Shown here: positions 1 through 4,570 of the stretch, in pieces
Numbering within the stretch: the first letter of the stretch is position 1
How the letters are laid out: every line of letters begins with the position of its first letter
Virus record (IMG/VR): IMGVR_UViG_2529292909_000015
Direction: 5' to 3' (one strand)
DNA: 4,570 bases
From: a virus
Taxonomy: Duplodnaviria > Heunggongvirae > Uroviricota > Caudoviricetes
Made by a program: the position numbers and the translations under genes
The notes under the pieces: model-generated
What the model was told of the DNA's origin: nothing
The model's input: the letters and a program-made list of their open reading frames with translations, nothing else
Databases searched by the model: none

Positions 1-330
1 ATGGTAAAATGTAATATAATAAACTTACTTTTTTATCATTTTTCCACTTTAACAACATTTTGCTCCACTTTTCCACGACCAAACAACTTGAAATCTGGTT
101 AAAATAACACGCAACACTATTCTTCTTCCTTGAGTCCGCCCGGAACTCGAAAAACAAACCGAGTTAAAGCCATTTTTCACAAAATCGATTTTGGGTCTCA
201 CCAAAGTTACGGGGTTGCATACGCATTCGTTTATTTTCGAACGTGTACATACAAATATGCACAAAAATAATCAAAATTATTTTCTGAGATGCATTATGAT
301 ATGAACACCAATTTCGTATAGAGTCTCACT

Positions 331-921
331 ATGTCTCGAATTTTTGCTTACTGTCGGATATCAACGCTGGATCAGACCACCGAAAATCAACGCCGGGAAA
401 TCGAAAGTGCAGGTTTTAAAATCAAACCTCAGCAAATAATCGAAGAACACATTAGCGGCTCAGCAGCAACCAGTGAGCGTCCTGGTTTTAACCGGTTGCT
501 TGCTCGCCTGAAATGTGGTGATCAATTGATTGTGACAAAACTGGATCGCCTTGGTTGTAATGCAATGGATATCAGGAAAACAGTGGAACAACTGACCGAA
601 ACAGGTATCAGAGTGCATTGCTTAGCATTGGGGGGCATTGACCTGACCAGTCCAACAGGAAAAATGATGATGCACGTAATTTCAGCAGTCGCTGAATTTG
701 AACGAGACCTTTTACTTGAACGCACTCATTCCGGGATAGTAAGAGCCCGCGGCGCAGGGAAACGTTTTGGTCGACCACCTGTGTTAAATGAAGAACAGAA
801 ACAGGTGGTATTCGAACGAATTAAGTCAGGTGTAAGTATAAGTGCCATTGCCCGGGAATTCAAAACCTCGCGGCAAACCATTTTAAGAGCCAAAGCAAAA
901 CTTCAGACACCTGACATATAA
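331..921 (+). CDS. pinQ: Serine recombinase, DNA invertase of the Pin/Gin/Hin/Cin family (196 aa)
   Basis: ORF 331-921 translates to [15 protein letters not shown]...; N-terminal resolvase/invertase catalytic domain with the conserved Y-x-R-x-S-T-x-x-Q motif (presumed catalytic Ser11) and a C-terminal helix-turn-helix ([20 protein letters not shown]). Recognised as the PinQ/PinR-type invertase of E. coli lambdoid cryptic prophages; the Q symbol is chosen from the Qin-like neighbourhood (nohA/ynfO/ydfO-like genes downstream). Confidence 0.9.
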
Positions 922-1018
922 AAAATAATCTCGGTGTGAGATGCTTTACGTCTTCCAAGCCCCCTTCCTTGCCGTAAATGGAGAGATACATCTAATTATA
1001 GAATTTATATGTTTTACC

Positions 1019-1594
1019 CTACGGCAGTGCTGGCCATTCAATATCCGGTGCAGTTGATGTATCAACACGGTTCAGCAACACCCGATACTTTTTCCAGGCT
1101 TCCAGCAACAAGGTTTCTTCCTCCGTTGCGATCTCCAGATCCACAGCATCCTGAAGCGGCGCTATATGCTCACTGGCTATCTGCATCAGGCTGTTTTTTG
1201 TTTCTTCCGCCTCCCGGATCCGGAACAGTTTTTCTGCTTCCGTATCCTTCACCCAGGCTGTGCCGTTCCACTTCTGATATTCCCCTCCCGGCGATAACCA
1301 GGTAACATTTTCCGGTAACGGACCGAGTTCAGAAATAAATAACGCGTCCCCTGATGCCACGTCATAAACCGTTTTACCCCGATGATCTTCAACGAGATGC
1401 CACGATGCCTCATCACTGTTGAAAACAGCCACGAAGCCTGCCGGAATATCTGGCGGTGCAATATCGGTACTGTTTGCTGGCAGACCTGTATGAGGCGGAA
1501 TATATGCGTCACCTTCACCAATAAATTCATTAGTTCCGGCCAGCAGATTATAAATTTTTATGGTCCGTGGTTGTTCACTCATTCTGAATGCCAT
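1019..1594 (-). CDS. tfaQ: Tail fibre assembly protein (Tfa family chaperone, 191 aa)
   Basis: Minus-strand [27 protein letters not shown]...EWPALP recognised as the TfaQ/TfaR-type tail fibre assembly protein. ATG at 1594-1592 is preceded by a GAGG Shine-Dalgarno-like element and overlaps the stop of the upstream stf tip ORF (TAATG), indicating translational coupling. Stop codon TAG at 1021-1019. Confidence 0.88.
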
Positions 1595-2198
1595 TACGCA
1601 AGCCTCACAATATAGTTAAATGCGATGTTTTTGACGGTGTTTTCCGCGTTACCAGCAGCGTTAACGGTGATGGTATGTCCATGTGAACCAATCGCAACGG
1701 AGTGCGTATGAGCACCAATACCGACAGTATGTGCGTGTGCACCTGCGCTTGCAGCAGTACCCGATACAGAGTGCGTATGAGCGCCTGCAGAAGAAGTGTT
1801 AACACTGTATTTAGAATAATCAGGTGATCCACTTCCCGGAGCACCACTGGAACCACCTGAAACAAATGTCATCGAATGGGTATGTGCACCGGCTGTCCCC
1901 ATGCATTTACCGCCCGGACTGTCAGCCTGTAATTTCCCAGCGCCAGCTGCGTGAAGCGATATGTGGTTTCCGTCGTCCGGGCCGTGCTGACCAACCGCTC
2001 ACTGCCGTCGTCCGCTGCCACGGTCAGGCGAAGCATAAAGCTCACCCCCTTCACCACCTTCGGCGTGTCCCAGCGCGCCAGCACCTGGTATTCCCCGCTG
2101 TCTGCGGTGACTTCTGCGGTCAGGTGCTGAACTGCTGGCGGCGTGACACCATTCACCGTGCCGCTCTGGTCACCGTCAAAGTGCGCCCCGTTATCAGT
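1594..2198 (-). pseudogene. stfQ: Composite tail-fibre remnant: internal J-like (tail tip, fibronectin-III-like region) fragment (about 2198-1893) joined out of frame to the C-terminal receptor-binding tip of a side tail fibre protein Stf (about 1892-1594)
   Basis: Minus-strand frame open 2198-1872 encodes ...TVNGVTPPAVQHLTAEVTADSGEYQVLARWDTP...[27 protein letters not shown], which matches my recollection of an internal segment of lambda J, then runs into a stop after 7 unrelated codons. A different frame (open 1998-1597, ATG at 1902) encodes ...[10 protein letters not shown]...[10 protein letters not shown]...[50 protein letters not shown], the HxH-repeat C-terminal tip typical of lambda Stf / T4 gp37-type fibres. 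No N-terminal or shaft portion of Stf is present, and the two fragments are in different frames. Confidence 0.7.
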
Positions 2199-2698
2199 TC
2201 ATCCAGCGCGGCTGCTTTGTTCATGGCTTTGATGATATCCCGTTTCAGGAAATCAACATGTCGGTTTTCCAGTTCCGGAAAACGCCGCTGCACCGACAGG
2301 GGGATCCCGTCGAGAATACTGGCAATTTCACCTGCGATCCGCGACAGCACGAAAGTACAGAATGCGGTTTCCACCACTTCAGCGGAGTCTCTGGCATTTT
2401 TCAGCTCCTGTGCGTCGGCCTGCGCACGCGTAAGTCGATGGCGTTCGTACTCAATAGTCCCTGGCTGGAGATCTGTCTCGCTGGCCTGCCGCAGTTCTTC
2501 AACTTCCCGGCGCAGCTTTTCGTTCTCAATTTCAGCATCCCTTTCGGCATACCATTTTATGACGGCGGCAGAATCATAAAGCACCTCATTACCCTTGCCA
2601 CCGCCTCGCAGAACGGGCATTCCCTGTTCCTGCCAGTTCTGAATGGTACGGATACTCGCACCGAAAATGTCAGCCAGCTGCTTTTTGTTGACTTCCAT
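2153..2698 (-). CDS. nohA: Small terminase subunit Nu1 homologue (DNA-packaging protein NohA-like, 181 aa) with a non-native C-terminal tail
   Basis: Minus-strand ORF MEVNKKQLADIFGASIRTIQNWQEQGMPVLRGGGKGNEVLYDSAAVIKWYAERDAEIENEKLRREVEELRQ... is near-identical to lambda gpNu1 as I recall it, through ...KRDIIKAMNKAAALDELI; the last 10 residues (TGRTLTVTRAAR) diverge because the reading frame runs into J-like DNA. The N-terminal winged-HTH cosB-binding region is intact. Start ATG at 2698-2696, stop TGA at 2155-2153. Confidence 0.9.
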   Translation of the reverse strand: MEVNKKQLADIFGASIRTIQNWQEQGMPVLRGGGKGNEVLYDSAAVIKWYAERDAEIENEKLRREVEELRQASETDLQPGTIEYERHRLTRAQADAQELKNARDSAEVVETAFCTFVLSRIAGEIASILDGIPLSVQRRFPELENRHVDFLKRDIIKAMNKAAALDELITGRTLTVTRAAR

Positions 2699-2699
2699 T

Positions 2700-2915
2700 G
2701 TTCATTCCACGGACAAAAACAGAGAAAGGAAACGACAAAGGCCAAAAAGCCCGCTTTCAGCACCTGTCGTTTCCTTTCTTTTCAGGGGGTATTTTAAATA
2801 AAAACATTAAGTTACGACGAAGAAGAACGGAAACACCTTAAACCGGAAAATTTTCATAAATAGCGAAAACCCGCGAGGTCGCCGCCCCGTAACCTGTCGG
2901 ATCACCGGAAAGGAC
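2700..2915 (-). other. Lambda-type cos region: cosB (R1 about 2726-2741, R2 about 2763-2778, R3 about 2820-2838, A/T-rich IHF-type spacer between), cosN (2876-2887) and the cosQ-side right-end sequence (about 2888-2915)
   Basis: The reverse complement of 2698-2887 matches the lambda left end as I recall it (GGGCGGCGACCTCGCGGGTTTTCGCTATTTATGAAAATTTTCCGG...GAAAGGAAACGACAGGTGCTGAAAG...TGTCGTTTCCTTTCT...ATGGAAGTC) with only a few substitutions. The reverse complement of 2888-3086 matches the lambda right end (...GATGATAATCATTATCACTTTACGGGTCCTTTCCGGTGATCCGACAGGTTACG). The window therefore contains a closed (prophage-configuration) cos junction. Confidence 0.85.
2876..2887 (-). other. cosN cohesive-end sequence (5'-GGGCGGCGACCT-3' on the minus strand)
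   Basis: Plus strand 2876-2887 is AGGTCGCCGCCC, the exact reverse complement of the 12-nt lambda cohesive end, flanked by CGCGGG on the cosB side and CGTAACC on the cosQ side as in lambda. Confidence 0.85.
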
Positions 2916-3086
2916 CCGTAAAGTGATAATGATTATCATCTACATATCACAACGTGCGTGGAGGCCATCAAACCACGTCAAATAATCAATTATGACGCAG
3001 GTATCGTATTAATTGATCTGCATCAACTTAACGTAAAAACAACTTCAGACAATACAAATCAGCGACACTGAATACGGGGCAACCTC

Positions 3087-3320
3087 ATGTCAACGAAGAA
3101 CAGAACCCGCAGAACAACAACCCGCAACATCCGCTTTCCTAACCAAATGATTGAACAAATTAACATCGCTCTTGAGCAAAAAGGGTCCGGGAATTTCTCA
3201 GCCTGGGTCATTGAAGCCTGCCGCCGGAGACTGTGCTCAGAAAAAAGAGTTTCTTCTGAAGCAAACAAAGAAAAGAGTGACATTACTGAATTGCTCAGAA
3301 AACAGGTCAGACCAGATTGA
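3087..3320 (+). CDS. ynfO: Small basic protein, YnfO/YlcI-like (77 aa), predicted ribbon-helix-helix-like DNA-binding fold
   Basis: ORF MSTKNRTRRTTTRNIRFPNQMIEQINIALEQKGSGNFSAWVIEACRRRL...; Arg-rich N-terminal arm, then an alternating strand (RNIRFP), a helix ending in Gly (NQMIEQINIALEQKG) and a second helix (NFSAWVIEACRRRL), the pattern of Arc/MetJ/CopG RHH proteins. GGGG about 7 nt upstream of the ATG could serve as a Shine-Dalgarno. Position (first gene beyond cos, opposite strand to Nu1) and size fit the Qin ynfO / DLP12 ylcI class. The fold assignment is inference. Confidence 0.75.
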   Translation: MSTKNRTRRTTTRNIRFPNQMIEQINIALEQKGSGNFSAWVIEACRRRLCSEKRVSSEANKEKSDITELLRKQVRPD

Positions 3321-3362
3321 AGCAATTTAGATAATCGTGCAGACTACGCCCCCTCATATCAC

Positions 3363-3788
3363 ATGGAAGGTTTATCTATGGATCAGGTAGTCATTTTTAA
3401 ACAAATATTTGATAAAGTTCGAAACGATTTAAACTATCAATGGTTTTATTCTGAGCTAAAACGTCACAATGTCTCACATTACATTTACTATTTAGCCACA
3501 GAGAATGTTCATATTGTATTAAAAAATGATAATACAGTGTTATTAAAGGGCCTAAAAAACATTGTGTCTGTCAAATTTTCAAAGGATAGGCATCTTATAG
3601 AAACGACCTCTAATAAGCTGAAATCCAGAGAGATCACATTTCAGGAATACAGAAGAAACCTTGCTAAAGCAGGAGTTTTTCGGTGGGTTACAAATATCCA
3701 CGAACAAAAAAGATATTACTATACCTTTGATAATTCATTACTATTTACTGAAAGCATCCAGAAAACTACACAGATCTTACCACGCTAA
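3363..3788 (+). CDS. ydfO: YdfO/YbcV-like prophage accessory protein of unknown function (141 aa from ATG 3363; alternative start ATG 3378 gives 136 aa)
   Basis: [68 protein letters not shown]...QILPR; no predicted transmembrane segment and no catalytic motif I recognise. The internal ATG at 3378 has a much better Shine-Dalgarno (GGAAGG at 3365-3370, 7-nt spacer) than the first ATG. The gene is markedly AT-rich relative to the lambda-derived DNA to its left. I recall the YdfO/YbcV family as DUF1398, but that label is from memory. Confidence 0.8.
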
Positions 3789-3796
3789 ACCATAAC

Positions 3797-3825
3797 GTCC
3801 GGCTTCTCTCACTCCTGAGCCGGAC
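3797..3825 (+). other. Stem-loop immediately downstream of the ydfO-like stop (8-bp perfect stem GTCCGGCT/AGCCGGAC, 13-nt loop)
   Basis: Inverted repeat read directly: gtccggct (3797-3804) and agccggac (3818-3825). No U-tract follows, so it is not a canonical intrinsic terminator; it may be an RNA 3'-end stabiliser or a protein-binding site. Confidence 0.3.
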
Positions 3826-3894
3826 TGCATTGGTTTAATAAAAACCATCAACAATTGTGATTTAGATATTCGGAACCATTCAAATATAACAAAA

Positions 3895-3917
3895 CCCCGT
3901 AAAAACGAGGTTTATGG
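3895..3917 (-). terminator. Candidate intrinsic terminator for the minus-strand gnsB-like gene (weak, possibly bidirectional)
   Basis: Hairpin ccccgt-aaaa-acgagg (3895-3910; 5 of 6 stem positions pair) followed on the minus strand by a U-rich tract (TTTTGTTATATTTG) about 30 nt downstream of the gnsB-like stop codon; on the plus strand it is followed by TTTAT. Confidence 0.3.
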
Positions 3918-3939
3918 ATAAATTTTATTATTGAATACA

Positions 3940-4090
3940 TCAGATTAAATTAATCTTGACATCATAGCTTTCAAGACCCGTCATTTTTTCCCGTGCGGTA
4001 AACTGAATACTGGTAACTTCTTTCCCGGTCTTTTTCTTAAGTTCAATAATTTTTTTGTTATATATTCAGAAATATCTGCTTCTGCTTTTG
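3940..4090 (-). pseudogene. gnsB: gnsB-like gene remnant (GnsA/GnsB family): 5' end removed by the IS1 insertion and reading frame broken in a homopolymer run
   Basis: Minus-strand translation gives KAEADISEYITKK (frame ending at the A7 run, plus 4050-4056) and, one frame over, IIELKKKTGKEVTSIQFTAREKMTGLESYDVKINLI-stop (stop at 3942-3940). Joined, these align with the GnsA/GnsB sequence as I recall it (MNIEELKKQAETEIADFIAQKIAELNKNTGKEVSEIRFTAREKMTGLESYDVKIKIM). The first 8 or so codons and the promoter are replaced by the IS1 terminal inverted repeat, which begins at 4091. Confidence 0.6.
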
Positions 4091-4105
4091 GGTAATGACT
4101 CCAAC

Positions 4106-4570
4106 TTATTGATAGTGTTTTATGTTCAGATAATGCCCGATGACTTTGTCATGCAGCTCCACCGATTTTGAGAACGACAGCGACTTCCGTCCCAGCCGTG
4201 CCAGGTGCTGCCTCAGATTCAGGTTATGCCGCTCAATTCGCTGCGTATATCGCTTGCTGATTACGTGCAGCTTTCCCTTCAGGCGGGATTCATACAGCGG
4301 CCAGCCATCCGTCATCCATATCACCACGTCAAAGGGTGACAGCAGGCTCATAAGACGCCCCAGCGTCGCCATAGTGCGTTCACCGAATACGTGCGCAACA
4401 ACCGTCTTCCGGAGCCTGTCATACGCGTAAAACAGCCAGCGCTGGCGCGATTTAGCCCCGACGTATCCCCACTGTTCGTCCATTTCCGCGCAGACGATGA
4501 CGTCACTGCCCGGCTGTATGCGCGAGGTTACCGACTGCGGCCTGAGTTTTTTAAATGGCGGAAAATCGTG
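4106..4570 (-). CDS. insB: IS1 transposase InsB reading frame (insB', C-terminal 155 codons; 5' end outside window)
   Basis: Minus-strand frame reads [77 protein letters not shown]...[12 protein letters not shown]-stop, recognisable as IS1 InsB; stop TAA at 4108-4106. The ORF-track entry 4106-4483 is the Met-initiated portion of the same frame. Confidence 0.9.
4528..4570 (-). CDS. insA: IS1 InsA, C-terminal end (5' end outside window)
   Basis: Minus-strand frame reads ...[13 protein letters not shown]-stop with TAA at 4530-4528, matching the known InsA C-terminus that overlaps the start of the insB' frame. Confidence 0.8.
4546..4552 (-). other. IS1 programmed -1 ribosomal frameshift motif (A6C) at the insA/insB' overlap
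   Basis: Minus-strand sequence TTTAAAAAACTCAGG (plus strand GTTTTTT at 4546-4552) sits in the insA/insB' overlap, where IS1 is known to produce the InsAB' transposase by -1 frameshifting. Confidence 0.8.

Follow-up and report, generated by a model that had tools for sequence, protein, structure and literature searches.

We find that pinQ, annotated as a DNA invertase gene at the left end of the Escherichia coli cryptic prophage Qin, probably forms, together with its flanks, one end of a Tn5403/Tn2503-type transposon, a member of the Tn3 family. The window, by which we mean the whole stretch of DNA analyzed (4570 bases; IMG/VR record IMGVR_UViG_2529292909_000015), corresponds to this end of Qin at 99.8–100% identity, and pinQ occupies positions 331–921 on its plus strand. 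As we read it, the module (approximately 218–964) starts with a decayed res site that bears the promoter of the gene, continues with tnpR, which encodes the resolvase, and ends in what remains of a terminal inverted repeat. An ancestral lambdoid phage carried the module in its accessory "b" region, just downstream of the tail-fibre assembly gene tfa, with the transposase half gone. No invertible fibre segment ever existed at pinQ, and crossover sites of the gix/hix type are not expected there; if pinQ is a left-over resolvase end, the missing invertible segment is what one would expect. A first-pass annotation of the window had taken pinQ for an orphan invertase of the Gin/Pin type, whose usual role would be to switch the neighboring fibre gene. 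The facts it listed mostly hold, but its premise is wrong.

The 196-amino-acid product of pinQ is a small serine recombinase of the Tn3-family TnpR clade (Pfam Resolvase, 3.6e-36; HTH_7, 3.8e-11). In global alignments PinQ shares 41% of its residues with PinE, 40% with Cin and 36% with Gin, whereas these three are 75–82% identical to one another, which places PinQ outside the invertase family to which it had been assigned. By BLASTP the identity to PinE is 38%, and the name "Pin" is an accident resting on that figure; the neighboring fibre genes are unrelated to the function of the recombinase. Among solved structures, PinQ scores best against Gin (109 bits), with gamma-delta resolvase at 82 bits. 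On the other hand, PinQ is 83% identical to TnpR of the E. coli plasmid pOkiPb01706_1, where tnpR is paired divergently with an intact 994-amino-acid Tn3-family transposase across a 160-base-pair (bp) spacer. TnpR homologues at the same 83% identity on pECOED and pRM10386-2 likewise diverge from intact Tn3-family transposases, and the pRM10386-2 element is a minimal transposon of 3.8 kilobases (kb) bounded by 38–40-bp repeats. A Shewanella homologue (77%) is divergent from a DDE_Tnp_Tn3/DUF4158 transposase, and the homologue of Yersinia pestis Java 9 (73%) is the tnpR of the arsenic transposon Tn2503. Homologues of PinQ are found in at least 5000 plasmid records, 239 of them at 80–90% identity. 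In other genera, homologues of 55–78% identity never adjoin Tfa or Stf genes, and outside Escherichia none was found near tail-fibre genes. The recognition helix of PinQ, SRQTILRA, is nearly identical to that of the transposon TnpRs, where Gin and PinE read VSTLYK. Over its first 110 nucleotides (nt) pinQ shares 60–63 identities with cin, gin and pinE, which share 84–89 of the 110 among themselves, and it is within this 5′ coding stretch of cin that the recombinational enhancer of P1 is annotated.

The approximately 115 bp preceding the pinQ start codon (218–320) align colinearly, and almost without gaps, with tnpA-tnpR intergenic res regions. The region had been described as lacking recognizable sites, but sites of the res type are present. 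In the reference layout a 9+8+9 dyad, TGACCGAAA-N8-TTTCGTACA, is followed by a 14-bp gap, a 9+14+9 dyad, TATAAT and two direct half-sites; the tnpA-tnpR intergenic region was described as a res with three imperfect dyads in the Tn2503 paper. In the window, subsite A, the equivalent of the crossover site (218–243, plus strand; CATACGCAT-TCGTTTAT-TTTCGAACG), aligns column for column with the reference dyad. No other 26-bp dyad of the PinQ type in the window scores higher, yet its 3.3 bits fall far short of the 26–29 in the references. By alignment, subsite B is a 9+14+9 dyad at 258–289 (plus strand; TGCACAAAA-N14-TTTCTGAGA), and subsite C consists of two direct half-sites at 299–320 (plus strand; ATATGAACA-CCAA-TTTCGTATA). 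Between B and C lies TATGAT (295–300, plus strand), a candidate −10 hexamer of the pinQ promoter; TATAAT or TATGAT stands at this column in all 15 aligned homologues. The half-sites of the window score −4.1 and 7.3 bits in A, 3.0 and 1.0 in B, and −10.8 and 12.7 in C, against 10.4–16.0 in the references, so that the right half of C (TATACGAAA) is the best preserved, and the otherwise invariant CGAAA core has been lost from four of the six. Phage 2H10 keeps somewhat better versions of the subsites than the window does. A res profile built from nine non-phage upstream regions only matches the window at 235–323 with E=1.5e-9 and 2H10 with E=1.3e-13; it matches once per phage genome, including the 46-kb genome of 2H10, and not at all in prophage e14. 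Nor does the whole 2H10 genome contain a second PinQ-type crossover site or res copy, the next-best dyads reaching at most 4.3 bits. One further PinQ-type half-site, TGACCGAAA at 593 inside the coding region (13.0 bits), was set aside, as it stands alone, without a dyad partner, and chance would be expected to give roughly one such match in this amount of sequence. A literature search for the half-site strings returned nothing relevant.

On the other side of the gene, a probable relic of the Tn3-family 38-bp terminal inverted repeat lies at 930–964 on the minus strand (GGGGGCTTGGAAGACGTAAAGCATCTCACACCGAG). A blastn alignment with the plasmid element, at 82% identity over 251–960, continues past the stop codon and ends at the outer GGGG of the repeat. 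Approximately 22 of 30 aligned bases of the relic match GGGGTCCGCTTGGAAAACGGAAAATATCCCACGCTAAG, with a 3-nt deletion, the form of the Tn3-family terminal repeat being GGGG...ACGCTAAG. No profile match to a second terminal repeat was found in the window, and tblastn with the 994-amino-acid TnpA detects no tnpA remnant in the window, in Rac, in Qin or in the 2H10 genome. The pinQ locus is thus a fragment and not a complete transposon.

The first-pass annotation described the recombinase as intact with its catalytic motif. A full-length open reading frame with both domains is indeed present, but the motif is altered. The catalytic nucleophile is kept, as alignments place Ser11 (codon at 361–363, plus strand) at the position of resolvase S10, whereas alignment with structures from the PDB sets KLDRLGC of PinQ opposite KLDRLGR of gamma-delta, so that Cys76 (TGT, 556–558, plus strand) occupies the position of the catalytic Arg71 of Tn3 and gamma-delta resolvases. 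LDRLGC is found in the window, in K-12 PinQ, in PinR and in phages 2H10 and Turner, whereas the other aligned members, PinE, Gin, Cin and gamma-delta read LDRLGR. Among 120 cluster representatives Arg is present in 112 and Cys is confined to five phage-type clusters, the Cys-bearing representatives standing for approximately 3900 sequences. A second phage lineage, 84% identical and also adjoining tfa, carries the same Cys; the change therefore predates the split of the two lineages. The codon is TGT in both, against CGT in the plasmid copies. The D36 equivalent is Glu across the whole clade, transposon copies included. Tn3 resolvase with R71A or R71K no longer recombines and cleaves approximately 1000-fold or more slowly, but still binds its sites and forms synapses (PMC2794168). 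The ratio of nonsynonymous to synonymous substitution rates (dN/dS) is 0.34–0.38 between the two Cys-bearing lineages, against 0.15–0.16 in comparisons with plasmid copies, constraint on the phage pin being relaxed but still present. Upstream of the gene the same two lineages differ by four substitutions and one 2-nt indel in approximately 165 nt (L039 1–164 against window 167–330), while synonymous divergence (dS) in the adjacent pin is 0.22. Such low divergence suggests that the upstream region is under constraint or, alternatively, that a mosaic junction lies at the start codon.

The layout of related genomes shows that no switch has collapsed here. Eleven deposited phage genomes encode a protein 98.5–99.5% identical to PinQ. 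2H10 and Turner carry, in this order, J, lom, stf (approximately 1117 codons), tfa, convergent pin, a ydfK-like gene and, further on, int; in Rac, stfR (1120 codons) is followed by tfaR, convergent pinR and ynaE. The stf-tfa-pin layout of the window thus recurs in the phages and Rac, where the fibre is full length, and all three genomes hold a single stf-tfa pair with no alternative fibre cassette. Because the same res-pin block is found in sequenced lambdoid phages, Rac and Qin, we regard the proximity of pinQ to tail-fibre genes as positional rather than functional. pin is present in 2751 of 5426 complete E. coli genomes, and in 2672 of these 2751 the block 120–1130 (upstream region, pin and the 3′-end of tfa) is colinear, so that there is no sign of orientation polymorphism; a published BLAST survey queried with Qin and Rac likewise found inversions in e14 only (PMC12529663). 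The 330 bp upstream occur in 2783 genomes, almost always together with pin, and for this reason we could not place the left junction of the captured module.

Several of the earlier observations on the window itself were borne out: tfa is intact, pin and tfa are convergent, the fibre gene is reduced to a C-terminal tip of approximately 104 StfR-like residues (1597–1902), and there is no second tfa or stf. The convergence had been used as an argument against a switch, but it is not diagnostic, as cin of P1 is transcribed into the C segment, with cixL lying over its 3′-end. We also confirm that no site of the gix/hix/cix/pix type is present. Our matrix was built from eight such sites; cix, gix and pix were read from P1, D108 and e14, and for hix the established sequences were used. 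When their own system is left out, known sites score 21.7–29.5 bits (hixR, 8.7), against 4.8 for the best 26-mer of the window, a value reached by 27% of shuffled sequences (maximum 2.9 ± 3.6 bits). The three partial matches proposed earlier, at 85–107, 267–292 and 919–944, score −15.4 to −26.8 bits and are at chance level; the second falls in res subsite B, and the third overlaps the pinQ stop codon and the inner part of the terminal-repeat relic. The top pseudo-match in the window (3896–3921) was rejected, since it is a hairpin downstream of ydfO that resembles a terminator and in which one half-site is shifted, and a generic repeat search returned short chance pairs only. The genome-wide matrix search that had been proposed as a check gave at most 6.8 bits over the complete 2H10 genome, 10 kb of Rac including the full stfR, and Qin, while the same matrix recovers the two pix sites of e14 at 31.0 and 29.6 bits.

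Compared with the minimal Tn5403/Tn2503-type modules of enterobacterial plasmids, arranged as inverted repeat-tnpA-res-tnpR-inverted repeat and 73–83% identical to PinQ in their TnpR, the pinQ module shares the 26-bp and 32-bp dyads, the TATAAT-like hexamer, the direct half-site pair before the start codon, the near-identical recognition helix of the helix-turn-helix (HTH) and a stop codon only a few bases from the 38-bp terminal repeat or, in the window, from its probable relic. It differs in lacking a transposase gene or remnant and a second terminal repeat, in having lost the CGAAA core from most half-sites and the catalytic Arg to Cys, and in residing in the b region of a lambdoid phage rather than on a plasmid. 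As in Tn3 and gamma-delta, the gene is preceded by a res of several subsites, which would overlap its promoter, the half-sites are of a similar kind, and the catalytic residues Y6, R8, S10, R45, D67 and R68 are conserved, but PinQ is only approximately 32–35% identical to these resolvases and has Cys for R71. Their res subsites measure 28, 34 and 25 bp, whereas the pinQ-type spacing is 26 bp, 32 bp and a direct pair; the window also contains CGTTCGAAA, which equals the right arm of Tn3 site I. Like the Fis-dependent invertases Gin of Mu, Cin of P1, PinE of e14 and Hin of Salmonella, PinQ is a small serine recombinase in which the catalytic domain is N-terminal and the HTH C-terminal; its gene also adjoins prophage tail-fibre genes. 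Unlike these invertases it has no gix-type sites, alternative fibre cassette or orientation polymorphism; its identity to them is low (36–41%), its recognition helix is another one, and its 5′ coding region, in which the enhancer of cin is annotated, is little conserved.

As to function, the conserved TATGAT between subsites B and C would serve as the pinQ promoter and, by analogy with Tn3 and gamma-delta, PinQ may bind the remaining half-sites, best kept just upstream of the start codon, and repress its own promoter. Recombination at the locus is unlikely because Cys replaces Arg71, the crossover subsite has decayed and each phage genome holds a single res relic; the locus has no partner site for inversion. 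Given these three obstacles, pinQ would persist at most as a gene for a DNA-binding protein with little or no strand exchange. The earlier suggestion that pin is a relic stands in another sense, the relic being the res-tnpR-terminal-repeat end of a Tn3-family transposon and not that of a switch.

Some points weigh against this reading. Taken by itself, the profile match at the terminal-repeat relic is weak and falls short of significance (7.9 bits, E=0.38), although nothing in the window ranks higher; we accept the relic because of its syntenic position, its correct orientation and its contiguity with the plasmid alignment. We infer both the promoter position and autoregulation, and a consensus promoter scan missed the conserved TATGAT and offered TGTACA-16-AATAAT at 244–271 instead. 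The class assignment was made by comparison with the plasmid, Shewanella and Tn2503 elements, and the effect of the Arg-to-Cys change is extrapolated from Tn3 resolvase, which is only approximately 32–35% identical to PinQ. A dN/dS of approximately 0.35, together with a reading frame kept intact in over 2600 genomes, indicates that some function not covered by this reading has been retained. Finally, PinQ overproduction has been reported to raise inversion of the e14 P segment from approximately 30 to 88%, and deletion of pinQ to lower it (PMC12529663); if the effect of overproduction is direct, PinQ is catalytically active despite Cys76.

This last result is at the center of the published alternative, in which PinQ is an active invertase in trans that has no target in Qin but inverts the 1797-bp e14 P segment at pix, giving rise to StfE2 and thereby to a block of T2 adsorption. 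The suggestion of the first-pass annotation that Pin acts on sites elsewhere coincides with this claim. T2 survivors overproducing PinQ carry the inverted segment, quantitative PCR gave 88% inversion with pCA24N-pinQ against 26–30% in controls, PinQ was without effect in stfP, stfE or e14 deletion strains, and pinQ and pinR are induced by T2 (PMC12529663). Site A of the PinQ clade furthermore has the same 26-bp dyad geometry as gix-type sites. There are precedents for action in trans among prophage invertases, namely Fin of Fels-2 on the Salmonella H segment and PinE complementing Gin and Hin, which the published model resembles; Fin and PinE are, however, close members of the Gin/Hin family with near-identical sites, whereas PinQ belongs to another clade with half-sites that do not fit pix. 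The PinQ-clade half-site model gives −28 and −31 bits at pix, while genuine sites reach +26 to +29; the two pix sites rank only at the 94th–96th percentile of random 26-mers. The P segment is moreover locked in a pinE mutant that still carries pinQ and pinR (PMC12529663), and we came across no experiment in which PinQ was overproduced in a pinE-null background. The transposon-type recognition helix, Cys76 and the poor match of the 5′ coding region to cin, gin and pinE (60–63 of 110 nt), over the stretch where the cin enhancer is annotated, count against it as well. The claim is compatible with a transposon origin of pinQ, but the sequence evidence lends it little support, and we consider it possible but doubtful that PinQ inverts the P segment itself.

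There are two further ways of understanding an intact gene with a changed active site, and we think each of them unlikely, though worth keeping in view. PinQ and PinR could be exapted, catalytically attenuated resolvases, in which Arg71 was fixed as Cys before the lineages split and the protein was then kept by purifying selection as a DNA-binding factor and not for strand exchange. If so, the bias of the e14 P orientation, the T2 resistance and the repression of host genes would stem from binding or from interference with PinE, and another mechanism would have to be sought for the "first recombinase-activated phage defence". Alternatively, pinQ could be a functionless passenger that has not yet acquired disabling mutations, the copies of the Rac/Qin type being very young and nearly identical. 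The gene is found at 99% identity or more in 2657 records, and because of this near-identity its intactness across genomes says little; the decay of the res relic and the loss of the catalytic Arg also fit a passenger. On the other hand, the reading frame has stayed open and Cys76 has been kept in both phage lineages, at the dN/dS given above and despite differences at 16% of residues (dS 0.22), and deletion phenotypes have been reported (PMC12529663; bioRxiv 10.1101/2022.03.29.486199).

It is improbable that PinQ is a working resolvase, acting on phage-genome multimers through its own res or in trans on res sites of Tn5403/Tn2503-type transposons and plasmids present in one cell with it. The reading frame is intact and under purifying selection, Ser11 is present, and the HTH hardly differs from that of the transposon TnpRs. 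E. coli plasmids often carry related transposons, with 205 plasmid places among complete genomes, so that substrates for a trans-acting resolvase exist. Against this stand the Cys in every phage copy, the 3.3-bit score of its own crossover subsite, the absence of the CGAAA core from four of the six half-sites and, as we see it, the lack of an obvious benefit in resolving lambdoid concatemers. That pinQ once inverted an stf/tfa cassette pair, since deleted to leave an orphan invertase, was the explanation suggested earlier by its place beside tfa and a truncated stf and by the fibre cassettes that do adjoin Gin, Cin and PinE, but this is already contradicted, and next to impossible in our view, given the full-length stf (approximately 1117–1120 codons) beside the same convergent pin and no second cassette in 2H10, Turner and Rac, the absence of gix-type sites from the 2H10 genome, Rac and Qin, the colinearity of 2672 of 2751 genomes, and the different clade and transposon relics of the module.

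In the window, the module follows the last codons of ydfK and is followed by tfaQ, the stf stub, a J fragment, nohA, ynfO with ydfO, and IS1. tfaQ (1019–1594, minus strand; 191 amino acids; Caudo_TAP, 2.4e-43) is a neighbor and lies outside the recombinase module, and a scan for a terminator between pin and tfa found none. A match to the Rfam family IS009 (RF02111) at 1053–1251 on the minus strand (221.5 bits, E=3e-55, full model length) lies wholly within the tfaQ coding sequence and on the same strand. The C-terminal stub of the side tail fibre gene stf (1594–1902, minus strand; Phage_fiber repeat) is 73% identical to residues 1017–1120 of StfR and overlaps the fragment of the lambda J Ig-like domain (1869–2156, minus strand; Ig_J, 5.9e-35), which in turn overlaps the stop codon of nohA, a homologue of Nu1 (2153–2698, minus strand). 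From the tfa start to the nohA stop there are 559 nt, against 913 nt in K-12 MG1655, a difference of approximately 354 nt, and stfQ of this strain thus has a further deletion relative to MG1655. Upstream of nohA, the exact cohesive-end sequence of lambda cosN, GGGCGGCGACCT, is found at 2876–2887 (minus strand), and a perfect 15-nt inverted repeat forms hairpin arms at 2723–2737 and 2765–2779, a repeat that resembles the hairpin of the lambda cos/Nu1 leader. Qin has kept a cos site beside its Nu1 homologue, and all head and tail genes between Nu1 and J are deleted. The IS1 copy (approximately 4090–4570; DDE_Tnp_IS1, 2.9e-74) starts approximately where most E. coli genomes cease to match the window (most matches cover 1–4090 only), and its insertion downstream of ydfO is common to only a few strains.

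Some relatives of PinQ are found in unusual arrangements. In Erwinia oleae (L019, 1268–2652) two genes of the clade, 72 and 78% identical to PinQ, lie head to head 203 bp apart, with their res-like upstream regions mirrored in a 566-nt inverted repeat at 74% identity that contains an inner 67-nt repeat. The ends of a 5379-bp contig of Photorhabdus cinerea (L017) form a perfect 127-nt inverted repeat overlapping the 3′-end of the recombinase gene, and the encoded C-terminal HTH is scrambled. The arrangement might reflect an inverted duplication or an artefact of assembly. Five proteins (P0003 and P0005–P0008), all from short contigs or single genomes, are chimeric, with a plasmid-type N-terminal part that has Arg at the R71 position and a phage-type C-terminal part ending in QTPDI. 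They could have arisen by recombination between plasmid-borne transposon copies and prophage pin, or could be assembly chimeras. In Budvicia aquatica (L024) a pair of 49-nt inverted repeats (7876–7924 and 11219–11267) has termini of the Tn3-family kind, GGGGTCCGCTTGGAAA...ACGCTAAG; a frameshifted gene of the PinQ clade lies just downstream of one arm, and genes for IS110-family transposases lie between the arms. We rejected these repeats as brackets of the recombinase, since they belong to a neighboring Tn3-type insertion beside the frameshifted copy, and the arrangement looks like nested mobile elements.

Beyond its reclassification, the pinQ locus is an ordinary decayed mobile-element fragment. 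The locus itself is already known, and the lack of a local target is in print, while the transposon origin with its res and terminal-repeat relics and the fixed Arg-to-Cys change appear to be undescribed in the literature we searched. pinQ and pinR, present in about half of complete E. coli genomes, are annotated everywhere as "DNA invertase", and the label has spread to transposon resolvases on resistance plasmids, the tnpR of Tn5403 having been called "pinR" by automated annotation (PMC13253593). With pinQ identified as a fragment of a resolvase module, the fact that an invertible segment was never found next to it is explained, and PinQ is predicted to bind TGTMCGAAA half-sites at 218–320. 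The missing catalytic arginine, furthermore, bears directly on the 2025 claim that PinQ-catalyzed inversion in e14 acts as an anti-phage defense.

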